A stretch of DNA of 64,000 nucleotides from Patescibacteria group bacterium (GCA_044868145.1 JBIOWE010000006.1:14558-78557), one strand, 5' to 3'; positions 42,403 through 58,130 are shown, numbered from the stretch's first letter. The notes: generated from the letters alone by a model not told the origin. Program-made: numbers and translations.

Positions 42403-42474
42403 TGCTTGATCAGCATTAGTTTTTTCGGTGGGGCATACCCTTGACATATATTATAATCGCATTATAATACACCC

Positions 42475-42714
42475 ATGACCCAAAAAGTTCTCCGCGTCGG
42501 CAGTTCCGCTGGCATCACGATTTCGAAGGAAGCGCTCAAGGCCTTAAAAGTTCGGGCTGGTGATTCGGTTGTAACCACAGTCTCCGAAAAGCTCGGCATT
42601 ATGGTCGTGAAGTCTTCAAAAAATCATACCTCCATTGACCTCGACATTATTGCCTGGACGAAAAGTTTTTTAGAGCAGTACGGGGATGATCTAAAGGCAT
42701 TGGCCAATAAGTAG
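42475..42714 (+). CDS. AbrB/MazE/SpoVT-type swapped-hairpin DNA-binding protein (putative antitoxin/regulator)
   Basis: VLRVGSSAGITISKEALKALKVRAGDSVV matches the looped-hinge-helix pattern. About 79 aa. Confidence 0.5.
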   Translation: MTQKVLRVGSSAGITISKEALKALKVRAGDSVVTTVSEKLGIMVVKSSKNHTSIDLDIIAWTKSFLEQYGDDLKALANK

Positions 42715-42851: not shown

Positions 42852-42908
42852 ACTTGACACTACGTCATAATCTTATATAATCTTATATAGTCAGAATATA
42901 AGATTATG
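42852..42908 (+). promoter_or_regulatory. Promoter with a 13-bp perfect palindromic operator overlapping the -10 box and the fic start codon
   Basis: TTGACA-N17-ATAATC. Palindrome CATAATCTTATAT ... ATATAAGATTATG; the ATG of the Fic gene lies inside the right arm. Confidence 0.5.
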
Positions 42909-43970
42909 GTATTACAAAACACCAGGTTTGACAGGCGAATTCAACGGATAGCGCCTCTCATATTATCCTCCATCGCGCAGATCGATGAATTAAAAGGGCA
43001 GTGGATTTCCGGAGCGCGGTTGAGTCCGCAAACGCTCGGCCGGCTGAAGCGGGCCGTTCTGTTGACGTCAACCGGCGCATCAACGCGCATCGAAGGCGCG
43101 AAGCTTTCTGATGAAGAAATCGAGAAGCTACTCCGTGGTCTCCGCGTGGAGAAGTTCGCCGATCGCGACAGCCAGGAAGTGAGGGGTTATTATGAACTCT
43201 TGAATAATGTTTTTGATTCATGGAAAAAGATTCGTTTTTCCGAGAGCAGCGTAAAGCATTTTCACAAGGAACTGTTGAAGCATGTGGAGAAAGATGTGCG
43301 GCATCGTGGTGAATACAAGAAAATGGAAAATAGCGTCAACATGGTTGATACGAATGGAAACGTCGTCGGCGTTATCTTTAAGACGACGCCTGCATATCTG
43401 ACTCCGAAAGAAATGCGGGAAATTATGGAATGGACCACCAAAGCGCTCACGGAAAAACACTATCACCCTTTGCTCGTCATTGCGAACTTTCTCGTGGAAT
43501 TTCTCGCGATCCATCCGTTTCTCGATGGGAACGGCCGACTTTCTCGCATCCTGACGAACCTCCTGCTCTTGCAGGCCGGGTATGCGTATGTGCCATACGT
43601 TTCGCATGAAAAACTCGTCGAGACGAATAAATCGGACTACTATCTCGCGCTTCGGCAAAGTCAGAAAACGTTCAAAACCAATCAAGAAAACATAGCGCCG
43701 TGGCTCACGTTTTTCCTCAACATCTTCTCTGTGCAATCGAAGAGAGCCGTTGATTTGTTGTCAAAAGAAAACGTGGAAAAGATTCTGTCACACAAACAGC
43801 TCGCGGTTTGGCAATATCTTCAAACAGTAGCTGAAGCGTCACCAAGGGAAATTGCCGAACACAGCCGAGTCGCGCGCCCGACCGTCAACCAAGCGCTCGA
43901 TAAGCTTCTTCGCTTGAAGAAAATCGAGCGGCTTGGGGAGGGGAGAAGTACGAGGTATCGGAAGATCTAA
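42906..43970 (+). CDS. Fic family protein (Fic/Doc fold) with C-terminal winged-helix domain
   Basis: Canonical Fic motif HPFLDGNGRLSR. A C-terminal HTH region follows (PREIAEHSRVARPTVNQALDKLLRLKKIER). Confidence 0.85.
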   Translation: MVLQNTRFDRRIQRIAPLILSSIAQIDELKGQWISGARLSPQTLGRLKRAVLLTSTGASTRIEGAKLSDEEIEKLLRGLRVEKFADRDSQEVRGYYELLNNVFDSWKKIRFSESSVKHFHKELLKHVEKDVRHRGEYKKMENSVNMVDTNGNVVGVIFKTTPAYLTPKEMREIMEWTTKALTEKHYHPLLVIANFLVEFLAIHPFLDGNGRLSRILTNLLLLQAGYAYVPYVSHEKLVETNKSDYYLALRQSQKTFKTNQENIAPWLTFFLNIFSVQSKRAVDLLSKENVEKILSHKQLAVWQYLQTVAEASPREIAEHSRVARPTVNQALDKLLRLKKIERLGEGRSTRYRKI

Positions 43971-44117: not shown

Positions 44118-45242
44118 ATGGCAGGAGAACGAAAAATCTTCTTCGTAGTAGCAACGGGTGGTCAATCAACCCAGGAGCATTATGTCGATACGATTAAGAA
44201 TAAGCGGACGATAGACGAAGCTGCTCGTTTTTTAGATCCGCAAGATGCAAAAAAGTTGAATGAAAAAATGCATGGCCAACCTTTTGCAGTGTGGGGTGCC
44301 GTGCCCGGAGAACGGAACAATCCAACATGGGAAACAATGGAGGAGGGGGACTATCTTTTAATCTATCGTGAAAGCAAAATTATTCTTGCGGCCGAGGTGG
44401 CGCTGAAAGTTCGCAATCCGCGCCTAGCGAAACACTATTGGAAAGAAGACGTCAACGGAAAAACATGGGAGCTCATGTTTTTCTTGTACAACGAGAATGA
44501 GGTCAATGTTCCAATGAAGCGGCTCAACACCTACCTTGGATATGCGGAAACGTATCACCCGCAAGGATTTATGGCCATTCAGCAAGAGAAAACCGATGCC
44601 CTCCTTTCTCAATACGGCGATCTATTGTCGTTCTTATCTCGTATAGAATCCGGCCAGAAGCCGGAAGCCATCGATGTCGACAGAAAGAAAGTCTTTAATC
44701 AAGTTGTGGATGAGAAAGTGGAGCGAGCACCAACCGAGCATGATGAAATGCAGTGGCGCTTGATTCGTCTCGGTAATAAAGCACACCTCGACGTTTGGGT
44801 GCCGCAAAATGATCAACATCGTAGCTACGATGGTCATGAGTTTCGTCAGTTTGTTATCCCTAAGTTTCAAGAAGCGATTGACGTCCCGGCTTATATTAAG
44901 AACATCGACACAGTCTGGAAACTCGGATTATCGATTAAGTCAGCTTTTGAAATAGAACATTCCACCTCGATTTATTCAGGGATCCTCCGCCTCTCGGACT
45001 TGCGCTCCTTAGCGCCGAACTCAAATTATCCTTTGTTTATTGTATCGTCGCCGGAACGAAAGTCGAAAGTTTTTGAGCAGTTACGCCGCCCGACATTTGC
45101 AAATGAGTATCTACAACTCGATCGCGCAGTGCGGTTTCTCTCATATGACGCGGTCCGTAAGCTCGACGAGGACCTAAAAGATGGGAATGTTGGGTTTGAT
45201 TTGGCATGGCTGACCGAGCGGGCGGAGGGTGTGTCAGCATAA
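44118..45242 (+). CDS. Protein with N-terminal EVE/PUA-like domain and uncharacterised C-terminal domain (possible nuclease)
   Basis: N-terminal FAVWGAVPGERNNPTWETMEEGDYLLIYRESKIILAAEVAL fits the EVE pattern W-GVRN..ARN.L..M..GD..FFYHS...IVGIAEV. The C-terminus has D/E-rich strands (HLDVWV, AFEIEHS) but no clean PD-(D/E)xK. Confidence 0.4.
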   Translation: MAGERKIFFVVATGGQSTQEHYVDTIKNKRTIDEAARFLDPQDAKKLNEKMHGQPFAVWGAVPGERNNPTWETMEEGDYLLIYRESKIILAAEVALKVRNPRLAKHYWKEDVNGKTWELMFFLYNENEVNVPMKRLNTYLGYAETYHPQGFMAIQQEKTDALLSQYGDLLSFLSRIESGQKPEAIDVDRKKVFNQVVDEKVERAPTEHDEMQWRLIRLGNKAHLDVWVPQNDQHRSYDGHEFRQFVIPKFQEAIDVPAYIKNIDTVWKLGLSIKSAFEIEHSTSIYSGILRLSDLRSLAPNSNYPLFIVSSPERKSKVFEQLRRPTFANEYLQLDRAVRFLSYDAVRKLDEDLKDGNVGFDLAWLTERAEGVSA

Positions 45243-45296
45243 GTTGTTGTTCCACTGCCTGGAGCTCGAACGATTTTTTTTCAAGGCAAGTAAAAG

Positions 45297-46847
45297 ATGA
45301 CATACAAAAAAGAAATATACGAAGATTTGATTAATAGTCTTGATATTGGATCCTCAGTTGCAGAACAAGATCGGTTTCTTGAGATAGCCAAAGTTGATAC
45401 ACCCGTATTAAATGATCTAATCGCTGATAGGGTGGACTTAATCTTAGGCATGAAGGGTTCTGGTAAGACAAGCCTATTTCGGCTAGTCATTGCGGCTGCG
45501 GAGCAACTAGAAAAGTACAAAATACTAATTGCTTCCGGGGTCGAGCCGACAGGTAATGCTGTCTTTGCGCAATTCAAAGAGGAGTTCGACAAGTTTTCCG
45601 AAGAGGACTTCGATAATTTTTGGATGATATATATTATTAATCTTGTTTATAATACCTTTATTGCTAAGCCAGAATATCAGCATGAGCTTAAAAAAGTCAG
45701 TAAAGAACGCAGCGATTTTATTAATGAGTCTATTGCTATTGGAGTTCCACAGGTTTCAGGAGTTACCGATTTTAGGAGCTTGGTGAATCGAAGCCTAGAA
45801 GCACTTAGAAACCTCCCCAACGTAAAAAAAATCTCTGCAAGTATGAAGTATGACGCGAAACAGCCAGGACTATTTGAGCCGAAGATTGAAGCAGAACTTG
45901 TTCCTAAACAATCCGGAAAAAAATTACCGATCTACACTACAAAACTCGCCGTGATCCTAAACGGCATTCTGGAAAAAACAGGTTATAAGATATGGATTCT
46001 ACTTGATCGTCTCGATATCGTTTTTGAACATGGGAGCGCGCTCGAGTTTAAGGCACTTAGAGGACTTTTGAAGGCTTATGAAGGTTTTCAGGCTAGCGAT
46101 TCAGCAAATAACAAATTGAGAATAAAGATTTTTCTTCGCTATGACCTTTTTGATTTTTTTACTAGCCCGGAAACATATAAGAGAATTTATAAACACCGCG
46201 GACCACATCTTAGTGCTCTAACTCATATTACGGCACGCGCAACAAAAGATCCCCTACATTGGAATAGAGAGCAAATACAATTATTGATGCTAAAAAGATT
46301 GTTTTTATCAGCTAGTTTAAGAAGCTATTTTAATGTATCTATAAGTGATCTTGAGAAGGAAGAGGTTAGGAATCGGATTTGGGAAATACTTTTTGGAGGT
46401 CAAGTAGATGCCGGCTCAAAAAAACCAGACTCAATGTCGTGGATATATACACGCCTTAGAGATGCAACTCTGTATGTAACGCCTCGTGCGGCTATGGATT
46501 TCCTCGATGGAATGATCTCGGCTCAAAAGAAATCTTTCTTACTTAATAAAGTAGACCAAGAGCACTTTTTTTCATCTACAGCCATCAAAAATGGAATTAT
46601 TGTTTCTTCGAGTCAAAAATATCGGGATGAAACAAAAAATGAGTATCCGGGTATTGTAAAATACATTGAAAAGCTGAGAGAAAAAAAAGCCAGAATCCCT
46701 CTTGCAGATATACAAAAACTGTTGGGTGGTGATTATGAATCTGTTCTTTTGGAATTAACGAAAATAGGTCTAGCGAGTCGTTCTAATGGGGATATTGTTA
46801 TCGCGAATATTTTTCGTCCAGCTCTTAACATTCGTCCACAACTATAA
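45297..46847 (+). CDS. P-loop NTPase (Walker A/B) of unknown family
   Basis: Walker A LILGMKGSGKTSL; Walker B KIWILLDRLDIVFE. The long C-terminal helical region is unassigned. Confidence 0.6.
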   Translation: MTYKKEIYEDLINSLDIGSSVAEQDRFLEIAKVDTPVLNDLIADRVDLILGMKGSGKTSLFRLVIAAAEQLEKYKILIASGVEPTGNAVFAQFKEEFDKFSEEDFDNFWMIYIINLVYNTFIAKPEYQHELKKVSKERSDFINESIAIGVPQVSGVTDFRSLVNRSLEALRNLPNVKKISASMKYDAKQPGLFEPKIEAELVPKQSGKKLPIYTTKLAVILNGILEKTGYKIWILLDRLDIVFEHGSALEFKALRGLLKAYEGFQASDSANNKLRIKIFLRYDLFDFFTSPETYKRIYKHRGPHLSALTHITARATKDPLHWNREQIQLLMLKRLFLSASLRSYFNVSISDLEKEEVRNRIWEILFGGQVDAGSKKPDSMSWIYTRLRDATLYVTPRAAMDFLDGMISAQKKSFLLNKVDQEHFFSSTAIKNGIIVSSSQKYRDETKNEYPGIVKYIEKLREKKARIPLADIQKLLGGDYESVLLELTKIGLASRSNGDIVIANIFRPALNIRPQL

Positions 46848-46988
46848 GTGTCATTTTTACAATACTGCCTACAAAAGTATCATTAACATTCGGTTTTCTT
46901 GATTGTTTAGTCAAAAGATTCGCTCACCAAGCGTGGGGACAGCACGCCTCCGAAAAGCGGCTAACAAAAAACCCTAATTTGAGAAAAT

Positions 46989-47438
46989 ATGAACGAGAAA
47001 AATTGCAAGAATTTATTTCGGCAATACCGGGAACTACGAGAAAGGACTACAATGCGAGCCCAACGCATAGACTCCACGAGAGAGGTGAAAGCTCAATACA
47101 TAGATTTTAAGGCTCAAGAAGAATTAGAGAGTGTTAGAAAACAGTTAGAGGATTGTTTATTATTTTTTTCAGAAGAACAGCTTATCCATATCTCTAAAGA
47201 CGATGATTTGCAGGAAAAAGCGTTTGAGACATTGAGTAAGAAAAGAGGGTTTGGTGACACCAAAAATTATTCGACGAACGATTTAGGGCAAAAATGTGAA
47301 GAATGTGGTGAACCGCTAAAGCCATCTCAATTCGCAAGAATTAAGAGAGATGGTCAGGCGAGTGAACAGGTCGATAACGGTTTAGTTTGTAGGAATTATC
47401 CTGCATGCCCGAAAGCTGAAAAGGAAATAGAAAAATAA
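46989..47438 (+). CDS. Hypothetical protein with C-terminal zinc ribbon
   Basis: CEECGEP...CRNYPACP. Confidence 0.3.
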   Translation: MNEKNCKNLFRQYRELRERTTMRAQRIDSTREVKAQYIDFKAQEELESVRKQLEDCLLFFSEEQLIHISKDDDLQEKAFETLSKKRGFGDTKNYSTNDLGQKCEECGEPLKPSQFARIKRDGQASEQVDNGLVCRNYPACPKAEKEIEK

Positions 47439-47553: not shown

Positions 47554-47799
47554 GTGTACTATCTCTACATTTTAAAATGTGCTGATGGGACACTGTATAC
47601 GGGTATTGCGGTCGATTTGGTAAGAAGAGTGCATGACCATAATCATTCAGAACTCGGGGCGAAGTATACGAAGGGGAGGCGGCCGGTCAAGCTGATTTAC
47701 TCGAAAAAGTTTCGCAATCGCTCGGCCGCTTCCAAGGTGGAAGCACGCGTCAAAAAACTGTCGCACAAGGAAAAGCTGAAGATGGTGAGGCAGAGGTGA
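47554..47799 (+). CDS. GIY-YIG nuclease family small protein
   Basis: MYYLYILKCADGTLYTGIAVDLVRRVHDHN. GTG start. Confidence 0.7.
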   Translation: MYYLYILKCADGTLYTGIAVDLVRRVHDHNHSELGAKYTKGRRPVKLIYSKKFRNRSAASKVEARVKKLSHKEKLKMVRQR

Positions 47800-48050: not shown

Positions 48051-48611
48051 ATGAAAAGAGCATTTGTTTTTATTGATGGTAGTAATTTCTACTTCAGATT
48101 AAAAGATTTAACGTCTAAGCTTAGTGGTAGATTCAGTCTACTCGACTATCATTTTAGAGAATTTTCTGAATGGCTGGTAAGGCCCAACAAACTAGAAGAA
48201 ATTCATTATTATGTTGGCGCCATTAAGAGGAAAGCAGATAATGAAAAAGTTGAAAAGATGTACGCCGATCAACAGCGACTTATAGCTAAACTAGAGCAAC
48301 AGAATGTTTTTGTTACATTGGGGCAATTGATTAGACATCCTGACAAAACGTACCATGAGAAGGGCGTTGATGTGCGCTTAGCAGTCGAAATGATTCGATT
48401 TGCCAGAGAGAATAAATATGATTGTGGCTATCTCCTCAGTTCTGATACCGATTTAGTGCCTGCCATTGAGGAAGTTAAATCTTTTGGCAAGACCGTCCAA
48501 TACGTTGGCACGGCTAAGGGTCAGTCATTCGGGATCTCTAAGGTAGCAAACGACGTTAGATTACTCAGAGCAGAAGAGATAGAAAAGTTTTTACCCAAAT
48601 CTCTTGTATAG
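48051..48611 (+). CDS. NYN domain (LabA/DUF88, PIN-like) protein
   Basis: FIDGSNF...EKGVDVRLAVEM...DCGYLLSSDTDLVPAIEEV are NYN acidic motifs. Confidence 0.7.
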   Translation: MKRAFVFIDGSNFYFRLKDLTSKLSGRFSLLDYHFREFSEWLVRPNKLEEIHYYVGAIKRKADNEKVEKMYADQQRLIAKLEQQNVFVTLGQLIRHPDKTYHEKGVDVRLAVEMIRFARENKYDCGYLLSSDTDLVPAIEEVKSFGKTVQYVGTAKGQSFGISKVANDVRLLRAEEIEKFLPKSLV

Positions 48612-49495: not shown

Positions 49496-50395
49496 ATGCG
49501 CAACATTATCACCACCACCTTCCTCACCCTCGACGGCGTCTACCAAGCCCCCGGTGGTCCCGATGAAGACAAGTCGGGCGGCTTTCAGTACGGCGGCTGG
49601 CAATTTGGTAAGTTTCAAGACGAATTAACGGGAAAAATTTTAAGTGGCTGGTTCGCTGCGCCGTTTGAACTTCTCCTCGGCCGAATCACGTATGACATCT
49701 TTGCTGCTTTTTGGCCAACCGCGAAAACTGATCCTGAAGTCGCTGTGCCGTTTAACGCCACAAAGAAATATGTTGTTTCACATGACCTGGGCTTCAAAGC
49801 GGCTTGGAACAACTCCGTTGTTGTGTCCGGAGATGTGGTCACGGAAATCAAAAAGCTGAAAGCGATGGACGGCCCGGATCTGTGGGTGTGGGGGAGTGGC
49901 AACCTGATCCAGACGCTCTTGAAAGCCAACCTGATTGATCGGATGCACATCTGGACACACCCGGTCACGATTGGATCAGGCAAGCGATTGTTTGCCGACC
50001 TGCCTGCGCCGCGGCCGAATATTTTTTACGTATATGTAATACTTTGCGATGACGATTCAATGTATATCGGCCAAACCGAAGATATTCCAAAACGTTGGTT
50101 TGAACATAACGTGGGAAGGGCTGCTGAACACACAAAACGACACAAACCACTTGAAATCATTCACTATGAAGAGTTTATTTCTCGAGAAGCTGCGGTAAAG
50201 CGCGAGCAAGATTTAAAGACAGGGTTTGGCCGAAAATGGCTAAAACACGAGTGGCAAGCCGGCCGGACGCGGCAGGCTGGTGGCACACAACCCGCGTTAT
50301 GGAAACTCGTGGACTCAAAAGTTTCTACCACCGGGGTCATTATTACCACCTACGAATTCAACGGGCCGCTGAAACCGGGGGCGGTGCCGACCTAA
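49496..50395 (+). CDS. RibD_C/dihydrofolate-reductase-like (YwjB family) protein carrying an in-frame GIY-YIG module insertion
   Basis: N-terminal part LTLDGVYQ...LLGRITYDIFAAFWPT...VWGSGNLIQTLLKANLIDRMHIWTHPVTIGSGKRLF, then FYVYVILCDDDSMYIGQTEDIPKRWFEHN (GIY-YIG). The DHFR-like C-terminus resumes at PALWKLVDSKVSTTGVIITTYEF. Confidence 0.6.
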   Translation: MRNIITTTFLTLDGVYQAPGGPDEDKSGGFQYGGWQFGKFQDELTGKILSGWFAAPFELLLGRITYDIFAAFWPTAKTDPEVAVPFNATKKYVVSHDLGFKAAWNNSVVVSGDVVTEIKKLKAMDGPDLWVWGSGNLIQTLLKANLIDRMHIWTHPVTIGSGKRLFADLPAPRPNIFYVYVILCDDDSMYIGQTEDIPKRWFEHNVGRAAEHTKRHKPLEIIHYEEFISREAAVKREQDLKTGFGRKWLKHEWQAGRTRQAGGTQPALWKLVDSKVSTTGVIITTYEFNGPLKPGAVPT

Positions 50396-51294: not shown

Positions 51295-51615
51295 TCCAGA
51301 CGAAAACTGTTAAGACGGAATGCACCAAAAGCCGAGATTATCCTTTGGCAATGCTTGAAGAATCAACAGCTGGGTCATAAATTCCGCCGTCAGTACAGTA
51401 TCGGCGGATATGTTGTTGATTTTTATTGCCCACAGAAGAGATTTGTCATTGAAGTTGACGGGCCAACACATTTTTCTCGGGGCGTACGGGACTATGATGC
51501 AACTCGCCAGCTATTCTTTGAATCGCTTGGCATGAGGGTCTTACGCGTGACGAACGACGATGTGTATGAGAACGTTCGGGGTGTCGTGGAAGCTATTCTA
51601 CGTTTATTGAAGTAA
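51295..51615 (+). CDS. DUF559/Vsr-like endonuclease-domain small protein (non-ATG start or 5'-truncated)
   Basis: RKLLRRNAPKAEIILWQCLKNQQLGHKFRRQYSIGGYVVDFYC...VIEVDG matches the DUF559 N-terminal motif. The ORF track starts at TTG 51355, but the frame is open from 51295 with no ATG. Confidence 0.6.
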   Translation, partial: SRRKLLRRNAPKAEIILWQCLKNQQLGHKFRRQYSIGGYVVDFYCPQKRFVIEVDGPTHFSRGVRDYDATRQLFFESLGMRVLRVTNDDVYENVRGVVEAILRLLK

Positions 51616-56354: not shown

Positions 56355-58130
56355 ATGGAAATACGAAACATCGCCATAATCGCCCACGTCGACCACGGCA
56401 AGACAACCTTGACCGACGGTCTTTTGCGACAGACCGGCATGGTTTCGGATGAGAGCCGGAGCATGGACTCCAACGAATTGGAACAAGAGCGCGGCATTAC
56501 GATTTACGCGAAGAACGCCTCGATGGTGTACAAGGGCACGAAGATCAACATCGTCGACACGCCCGGCCACGCGGACTTCGGCTCCGAAGTCGAACGCGTT
56601 CTCCGGTCCATCGACTCGGTACTCCTTATCGTTGACGCCCAAGAAGGGCCCATGCCGCAAACGAAGTACGTTTTGAAAAAGTCACTCGATTTGGGTTTGC
56701 AGCCCATTGTTGTCATCAACAAGATCGACAAACCCGCGGCGCGCATCCCGGAAGTGGAAGAGATGGTCCTCGAATTGTTCATGGATCTTGGGGCGAACGA
56801 CGATCAGTTGGCCTTTCCGACTGTGTACGCGATCGGCACGCGCGGCGTGGCGATGCGCAAGCCAGACGATCCGCAAAAGGACCTGACGCCGCTCTTGGAC
56901 ACGATTCTTGAACGCGTCCCGATCGCCCCGCACGCGACGGACGTGCCGCTCCGCATGCAGCCATTCAATCTTGGATACGACGACTTCATTGGCCGGCTGG
57001 CAATCGGACGCATGTACGAGGGTCGGATGCGCGTCGGGCAGGCAGTGTTCGTCAAAGACACGAAAGGTCACTCCCGGCCTGGGAAAATTCGGAGCATCTC
57101 CACGTTCCACGGGTTCGAGCGTCAGACCGTAGACACCGCGGAGGCAGGCGACATTGTGATGGTCGCTGGCATTCCGGATATCGACATCGGCGAAACGATC
57201 TGCGACAGCGAAGACCAAAAGCCTCTCGCGGCGATTCACGTGGATGAGCCCACGGTCGCGCTTAATCTTTTGGTGAACGACTCGGTTTTTGCCGGACAGG
57301 ATGGGACGCTTCTGACGAACAGCCAGATCAAAGAACGGCTGGAGAAAGAGTTAGAGGTGAACGTCGGTCTGCGCATAGATTTTTCGGCGAAGGACGCGTA
57401 CCGCATTTACTGCCGCGGAGAAATGCACATCGCGATTCTCTTGGAGCAGATGCGCCGCGAGGGGTACGAAATGCAAGTGTCGCAGCCGCAGGCGATTGAG
57501 AAGGAAGCGGACGGGAAGCGTCTTGAGCCGTTCGAGGAAGTGACGATCGACGTTCCGAACGAGTTGAGCGGGGTCGTCATCCAAAAACTTGCCCGCCGGA
57601 AAGGCACAATGACGAGTATGCACGTCGGTGAGACGACCCGCATGGTGTTTACCGTTCCGACGCGCGGCCTGCTCGGCTATCGCGGCGAGTTCGTCGTGGA
57701 CACGAAAGGCGAGGGGATTATGGCGTCGCACGGACTTGGCTTTCGGGACTACGCGGGGACGATCGCATCACGCGAGACGGGTTCGATGATTTCCATGGCG
57801 TCGGGCAAGGCGCTTGCGTACGCGCTCTATAACCTGCAGGAGCGCGGCATGCTTTACATCGGCCCGAACGTTCCGGTCTATGAAGGCATGGTCATCGGGA
57901 ACACTTCAAAAGGAGATGACATGGCCGTCAATCCGACAAAGGGCAAGCAGCAAAGCAATATGCGTTCCTCCGGATCCGATGAAGCGATTCAAACCACCAC
58001 CCCGCTCCTCTTGACGATTGAGCGCGGCTTGGAAATCATGAAGGAGGACGAGTACCTCGAAATCACGCCGAAGAACATCCGCCTCCGCAAACAACTTTTG
58101 ACCGTAACAGAACGAAAGCGGGTGCGGTAG
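56355..58130 (+). CDS. typA: Translational GTPase TypA/BipA
   Basis: [34 protein letters not shown] and the full EF-G-like architecture. Confidence 0.9.

Follow-up and report, generated by a model that had tools for sequence, protein, structure and literature searches.

A 64,000-nucleotide stretch of DNA from a Patescibacteria group bacterium (GCA_044868145.1 JBIOWE010000006.1:14558-78557; hereafter the window, with positions counted from its first letter) carries two adjacent genes, P1 and P2, which raise the question of whether they form a defence cassette. The original prediction had answered that they do, pairing an EVE/PUA-like reader of modified bases with a P-loop nucleoside triphosphatase (NTPase) in a type IV restriction-like or novel abortive-infection system. 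Our analysis leads to a different answer: P1 and P2 are probably two independent modules lying side by side in a small accessory island, the first a predicted solitary type IV endonuclease and the second a separately mobile AAA+ ATPase. The two genes are:

44118-45242, plus strand: P1, 374 amino acids, predicted solitary modification-dependent restriction endonuclease (reader and nuclease domains)
45297-46847, plus strand: P2, 516 amino acids, AAA+ ATPase of the Sll1717 family

Both open reading frames (ORFs) had been placed correctly, and the peptides by which they were first described (FAVWGAVPGERN, METMEEGDYLLIY, IILAAEVAL, GMKGSGKTS and ILLDRLD) are all present in them; the second gene does follow directly downstream of the first, but the spacer between these two plus-strand genes measures 54 nucleotides (nt) rather than 55. 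Because homologues are numerous and both genes are also called in an independent assembly of the locus, P1 and P2 are real genes and not chance ORFs.

An AlphaFold2 model of P1, based like the conservation calls on an alignment of 57 P1-family sequences (alignment A1), has a mean predicted local distance difference test (pLDDT) score of 82 and shows residues 1-180 and 205-374 as two domains with a disordered linker between them. Residues 187-202 of this linker have pLDDT values below 50, and in alignment A1 the linker is the least conserved stretch and carries insertions and deletions. The parts of P1 are as follows:

44118-44657, plus strand: residues 1-180, PUA-superfamily (YTH/EVE-like) predicted modified-base reader
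44658-44729, plus strand: residues 181-204, predicted flexible interdomain linker
44730-45242, plus strand: residues 205-374, NmeDI_C-type PD-(D/E)xK-fold nuclease domain
44745-44747 (E210), 44907-44909 (D264) and 44949-44957 (E278-x-E280), plus strand: candidate catalytic residues, from conservation

The C-terminal domain is assigned to the Pfam family PF27126, NmeDI_C; this name was taken from Pfam's precomputed annotation, as P1 gave zero matches to the local Pfam model set. A PADLOC search returned the type II restriction endonuclease model PDLC03534 as the sole match of P1, with residues 208-347 aligned to positions 178-321 of 351 (E 8.6e-9). The fold neighbours of this domain are PD-(D/E)xK enzymes, among them several cleavage domains of type IIS or nicking enzymes (match values of 8.7 for N.BspD6I, 8.5 for the R.BspD6I small subunit, 8.0 for NgoMIV, 7.3 for FokI and 6.1 for PaqCI), and its predicted secondary-structure elements follow the order alpha-beta-beta-beta-alpha-beta. 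E210, D264, E278 and E280 are invariant in alignment A1, and as putative catalytic residues they fit a motif of the D...ExE form, as in BamHI, with the lysine absent. Such a variant accounts for the earlier description of the domain as having acidic strands without a canonical PD-(D/E)xK: the literal lysine is indeed missing, but the restriction-endonuclease fold and the NmeDI_C assignment supersede the statement that there was no nuclease motif.

The N-terminal domain has the predicted fold of the PUA superfamily (SRA/EVE/YTH/ASCH). Its closest structure, at an identity of only about 15%, is the DNA-binding YTH-like domain at the N-terminus of Thermococcus gammatolerans McrB (TgMcrB; PDB 6p0f/6p0g), and 6p0g is known to bind N6-methyladenine (6mA) (PMC7897488). 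Six aromatic residues of this part of P1, W59, W71, Y79, Y83, W108 and W117, are invariant in the 57 sequences and are candidates for lining a pocket for a flipped base.

With an E-value limit of 1e-3, a profile search of the P1 domains that covered 1.84 billion cluster representatives returned 3139 matches, and with a limit of 1e-10 it returned 1724; many of the matches cover one domain only. When ten of these one-domain relatives were scanned with Pfam, the P1-type reader was found fused to NucS_C-type PD-(D/E)xK, HNH_2, HNH, AAA_5 (McrB-type) and ParB_N domains, and NmeDI_C either to a true EVE domain as defined by Pfam or to N-termini without an assignment, roughly of the size seen in NmeDI. 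This modularity of reader and effector is a hallmark of modification-dependent restriction enzymes (MDREs; PMC6765204), and fusions of TgMcrB-like YTH domains to PD(D/E)XK nucleases have already been noted (PMC7641849). No DNA methyltransferase adjoins P1 in the window, and such enzymes account for 2 of the 114 immediate neighbour proteins at 63 P1 loci, a context poor in methyltransferases that matches the behaviour of PUA-nuclease enzymes (PMC6765204). P1 thus shares with MDREs made of a PUA-superfamily reader and a nuclease the predicted reader fold, a fused nuclease domain with its candidate catalytic residues intact and the lack of a linked methyltransferase. Predicted folds, conservation and modularity together support P1 as a fusion of a modified-base reader and a nuclease, of the type IV restriction kind in its predicted function, and to this extent, for P1 alone, the type IV restriction-like proposal is upheld. 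The papers searched contained no characterised P1-family member pairing a YTH-like reader with NmeDI_C; this domain pair appears to be experimentally uncharacterised, within a class of architectures that has already been described.

More than 813 P1 homologues of about 373 amino acids were found, the best 120 of which are 58-100% identical to P1 over nearly the full length; more than 800 close homologues were counted at 90% clustering. The 63 loci recovered from 185,579 species genomes belong to Patescibacteria (26), Acidobacteria (15), archaea (2) and scattered other groups, so that the family is patchily distributed and enriched in Patescibacteria. A scan of viral contigs gave 0 confirmed loci. 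At about 10 of the 63 loci (L024, L028, L037, L053, L056, L057 and L059-L062), mostly in Acidobacteria, the P1-homologue ORF is short, split or absent away from contig ends, which suggests frequent pseudogenization, as would be expected if such a restriction gene is costly to keep; assembly errors or alternative genetic codes are further possible causes.

P2 is an AAA+ ATPase in which both Walker motifs are confirmed, in line with the proposed P-loop NTPase:

45447-45473, plus strand: Walker A, G51-S59, GMKGSGKTS
45993-46016, plus strand: Walker B, W233-D240, with ILLDRLD at residues 234-240

It scores 111.9 bits with the NCBIfam model NF047389 (P-loop ATPase, Sll1717 family; curated cutoff 75) over residues 17-474, and 17.5 bits with Pfam PF01637, below the threshold of 33.2. 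By fold it groups with Orc/Cdc6 and archaeal ATPases; neither an AAA_5 nor an McrB model matched it, and a sequence search against PDB chains gave no match. The C-terminal part is predicted to be helical and to end in a small beta-hairpin, possibly a winged helix. PADLOC-DB 2.0.0 yielded no full-length match to P2, the partial ones being PDC-M28C (residues 353-472, E 6.8e-9) and mad8, AriA and RecD, all with E > 1e-4. A literature search on Sll1717 found no description of the function of the family. Besides 43 close homologues, P2 has at least 492 relatives in metagenome contigs. On viral or prophage-like contigs, relatives have integrases, Ogr/Delta regulators and terminases as neighbours, and one relative lies inside a type I restriction-modification locus with CBASS, ApeA and NERD genes. 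P2 is thus a member of an already curated family that is separately mobile and often occupies prophage accessory slots or defence islands.

Two further observations concern the surroundings of P2 homologues. In a defence island (L068, 5705-7545), a 99-amino-acid ORF runs 4 nt into the beginning of the P2 homologue, and ORFs of about 100 amino acids, with no detectable similarity among them, precede P2 homologues at L117, L137 and L138; P2 homologues may have a small, variable partner gene. In another genome, a 54%-identical homologue (P0123) lies about 4 kb upstream of bipA (L148, 5871-7661), and P2 in the window lies about 9.5 kb upstream of bipA (56355-58130), so the site upstream of bipA may be an integration hotspot shared by related Patescibacteria.

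Do P1 and P2 belong together? A tblastn search of the 63 P1-homologue genome loci detected a P2 homologue in none (0/63), and P2 is also absent beside the closest relative of P1 (85% identity), which makes 0 of 64 P1 loci. Conversely, a P1 homologue was found in 0 of 84 P2-homologue loci, in 0 of 27 viral P2 loci and beside none of the four closest relatives of P2 (53-56% identity), that is, in 0 of about 116 P2 loci. Neither gene has any other conserved neighbour: among 817 clustered ORFs flanking P1 homologues the largest family spans 6 loci, and the largest cluster of P2 neighbours spans 3. The 114 immediate neighbours of P1 homologues fall into 105 Pfam families, most commonly MazG-like, NERD, Vsr, MTES_1575, HNH_2 and AIPR, and the 109 neighbours of P2 homologues into 57. 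Moreover, the G+C content at third codon positions (GC3) is 0.49 in P1 and 0.32 in P2, with flanking housekeeping genes at 0.59-0.74; this gap between the two genes points to separate acquisitions, and the two probably came in by separate events of horizontal transfer. P1 and P2 are therefore not a conserved pair and do not make up a new two-gene defence system. The recurrent adjacency on which a two-gene cassette would depend does not exist in these loci, and a novel abortive-infection system is not warranted.

Two candidates for such adjacency were examined and rejected. A fragment of an ORF, 38 amino acids long, which lies upstream of P0123 where the contig ends, was ruled out as a P1 C-terminus. 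The PUA gene upstream of another P2 homologue, P0124, encodes an AA_kinase+PUA protein, most likely glutamate 5-kinase, and the presence of PUA there is coincidental.

Several observations weigh against the view that P1 is a solitary modification-dependent nuclease and P2 an unrelated neighbour. The Pfam EVE profile (PF01878) has no sequence match to P1, and searches of PDB chains with P1, either as a single sequence or as the 57-sequence profile, returned noise or nothing; the reader assignment is for this reason a structural one, drawn from the predicted model. In the same way, the YTH-like call is structural because an hhalign comparison of the P1 family profile with a sequence of the human YTHDC1 YTH domain gave no meaningful match. 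The reader is nonetheless closer to YTH-like domains than to Pfam EVE, and P1 lies outside the Pfam EVE family; the EVE/PUA-like label first given to it thus stands for the PUA-like fold in the predicted structure and falls for EVE. The nuclease motif is without its canonical lysine, its catalytic residues are candidates drawn from conservation, and the activity of the P1 family is a prediction from fold and sequence. An identity of at least 58% across phyla is also unusual for restriction enzymes. As for P2, it has no recognised effector domain, which leaves its proposed role weak. Finally, no terminator or strong promoter was predicted within the 54-nt spacer, and P1 and P2, being co-oriented and this close, may be co-transcribed here.

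The strong conservation of P1 and its enrichment in Patescibacteria are mildly surprising and leave room for a less ordinary role. P1 might not act on phage DNA at all, and might instead be a toxin-like RNase whose YTH/EVE-like domain reads a modified base in tRNA or mRNA, or a scavenger that degrades the methylated DNA of the host bacterium in episymbiotic Patescibacteria. Eukaryotic YTH and EVE domains do read mainly RNA (PMC7641849, PMC7897488), and the unusual conservation, Patescibacteria enrichment and absence from viral contigs of the family would suit such a role. We regard it as unlikely, since the closest structure to the reader is a DNA-binding McrB domain, the relatives of the nuclease domain are DNA restriction enzymes, and the family is also found in free-living Acidobacteria and in archaea, with neighbours that are often DNA-defence genes. 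A related proposal would make the P1 family an uncharacterised conserved clade of distance cutters, reading 6mA or having a novel specificity, concentrated in Patescibacteria and possibly also scavenging methylated DNA of hosts or competitors. Patescibacteria are nucleotide-auxotrophic episymbionts, and a dual role, as a barrier to phages and in attacking methylated DNA to obtain nucleotides, could, if true, explain the identity of at least 58% across phyla; we consider this proposal rather improbable.

The arrangement of the two genes could also be read as an McrBC-like two-component type IV system in this genome, in which P1 would be the reader-nuclease and P2 an NTP-driven motor or platform. 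Both the shared strand with a short spacer, in which neither a terminator nor a strong promoter is predicted, and the existence elsewhere of P1-type readers fused to McrB-type AAA_5 NTPases, which shows that a logic of reader plus NTPase exists, speak for it. Such a system is nevertheless very unlikely: the two genes co-occur in none of the 64 P1 and about 116 P2 loci, P2 resembles Orc/Cdc6 and archaeal ATPases rather than AAA_5 or McrB, the GC3 values of 0.49 and 0.32 imply different histories, and more than 800 P1 homologues appear to work without P2.

Still more doubtful is a reading of P1 as an ordinary NmeDI-like type II enzyme, cutting an unmodified specific sequence and with the host protected by a methyltransferase encoded elsewhere in the genome. 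The homology of its C-terminal domain to that of NmeDI, and the type II model as its only PADLOC match, would fit this idea, but full-length collinearity with R.NmeDI is lacking, the match being confined to P1 residues 208-347 and to profile positions 178-321 of 351, that is, to the cleavage domain. In addition, the N-terminal half is a predicted PUA-superfamily reader whose relatives occur in McrB and in HNH modification-dependent enzymes, and methyltransferases occupy 2 of 114 neighbour positions, whereas nmeDIR overlaps the gene of its C5 methyltransferase, nmeDIM (PMC2095814).

The region around P1 and P2 is bounded by housekeeping genes, with MetRS, CvpA, TatD and RmuC upstream and BipA downstream, and several accessory genes of the defence type lie between them, as had been proposed. 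The AbrB/MazE-like antitoxin, Fic, GIY-YIG and NYN assignments of the neighbours were all matched:

42475-42714, plus strand: AbrB/MazE-like antitoxin (TIGR02609 doc_partner)
42906-43970, plus strand: SoFic-like Fic protein with a C-terminal winged helix-turn-helix (Pfam 1e-15; PADLOC SoFic 7e-44)
46989-47438, plus strand: Cys-rich ORF, 149 amino acids, GC3 0.35
47554-47799, plus strand: GIY-YIG ORF, 81 amino acids (3e-15), GC3 0.60
48051-48611, plus strand: NYN-domain protein (1e-17; PADLOC HEC-09 1e-18), GC3 0.36

That P2 arrived together with the Cys-rich ORF as one mobile module, rather than with P1, is the least probable of the readings considered, because, despite their similar and atypically low GC3 (0.317 and 0.347), common strand and separation of 141 nt, no homologue of the 149-amino-acid ORF was detected by tblastn in 84 P2 loci or 27 viral P2 loci, and a sigma-70-like site (46856-46883, 10/12 match) lies between the two genes.

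Other features of the island were recorded in passing. Two sigma-70 promoters with a 12/12 match to the consensus (TTGACA, 16 nt, TATAAT; plus strand) lie at 42441-42468 and 42854-42881, immediately before the genes of the AbrB-like antitoxin and the SoFic-like Fic protein, respectively; as each gene has its own promoter, the two may be transcribed separately and not as one toxin-antitoxin operon. Between 45297 and 48611, P2, the Cys-rich ORF and the NYN gene have a low GC3 (0.32, 0.35 and 0.36) and the intervening GIY-YIG ORF a host-like one (0.60), and this mixture marks the island as a mosaic whose pieces were acquired separately. Two small GIY-YIG ORFs, at L015 (10865-11098) and L073 (10929-11162), share 56-60% identity with that of the window; the first follows a P1 homologue and the second a P2 homologue, each at 3-4 kb downstream. 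Such islands may have these small ORFs in common as a mobile or hitch-hiking element. Further downstream, a 299-amino-acid ORF (49496-50395, plus strand) combines a RibD_C (dihydrofolate-reductase-like) region at residues 3-170 with a GIY-YIG domain at residues 177-244; the remaining residues, about 55, may complete the RibD_C fold, and an independent assembly agrees on the gene call. It looks like an in-frame insertion of GIY-YIG into a metabolic gene. An 86-amino-acid ORF (51355-51615, plus strand) matches DUF559/REase_MTES_1575 (Vsr-like endonuclease fold) from profile position 27 on and may be a truncated remnant; the DUF559/MTES_1575 family recurs beside P1 and P2 homologues elsewhere.

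Under the interpretation we favour, namely two independent modules in an accessory island, P1 would bind DNA through its YTH/EVE-like domain and flip a modified base into a pocket that the invariant aromatic residues would line; judging from TgMcrB, this base may be 6mA. The NmeDI_C domain, on its flexible linker, would then cut nearby, probably after dimerizing and at a fixed short offset. Two things suggest cutting at an offset: NmeDI cleaves 12/7 to either side of its site (PMC2095814), and the domain has type IIS-like fold neighbours. The role of P1 would presumably be anti-phage. P2 is most likely an ATP-driven switch that would bind nucleic acid or protein and act, independently of P1, in defence or superinfection exclusion.

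This interpretation removes a false lead, since there is no two-gene defence system here, and gives a testable annotation, that of a solitary YTH-like reader with an NmeDI_C cleavage domain, to a widespread family of hypothetical proteins in Patescibacteria, Acidobacteria and some archaea. If the specificity of P1 were 6mA with cutting at a fixed distance, the enzyme could serve as an MspJI-like reagent for mapping adenine methylomes. The Sll1717-family ATPases, as solitary mobile accessory genes that are often prophage-borne, become candidates for single-gene defence screens.

P1 and P2 are thus two additions to known kinds rather than a new system. P2 is related to the archaeal AAA+ ATPases SSO1545 and PABY2304, of the PF01637 type, but scores below the PF01637 threshold; the ATPase modules of BrxC (BREX) and RdrA (RADAR) are also related to it, and both operate within multi-gene systems of fixed composition, whereas P2 lacks any conserved partner. 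For P1, the two halves have separate counterparts. TgMcrB carries the most similar reader but fuses it to a GTPase, and the nuclease, McrC, is another protein which this GTPase recruits, whereas in P1 the reader is fused straight to the nuclease. R.NmeDI of Neisseria meningitidis, a type II enzyme recognizing RCCGGY and equal in length to the PDLC03534 model (351), carries a cleavage domain homologous to that of P1, but has another N-terminal recognition half and cuts unmodified sites, whereas P1 combines the domain with a PUA-like reader and has no methyltransferase partner. In its predicted mode of action, P1 is most like the MDREs that join a PUA-type reader to a nuclease, such as TspA15I and VcaM4I (EVE-HNH), YenY4I (PUA-DUF3427-PD-(D/E)XK) and the MspJI family (SRA-like with PD-(D/E)xK-like), from which it differs in using NmeDI_C as the nuclease module in place of the HNH or DUF3883 domains of PUA/nuclease MDREs.

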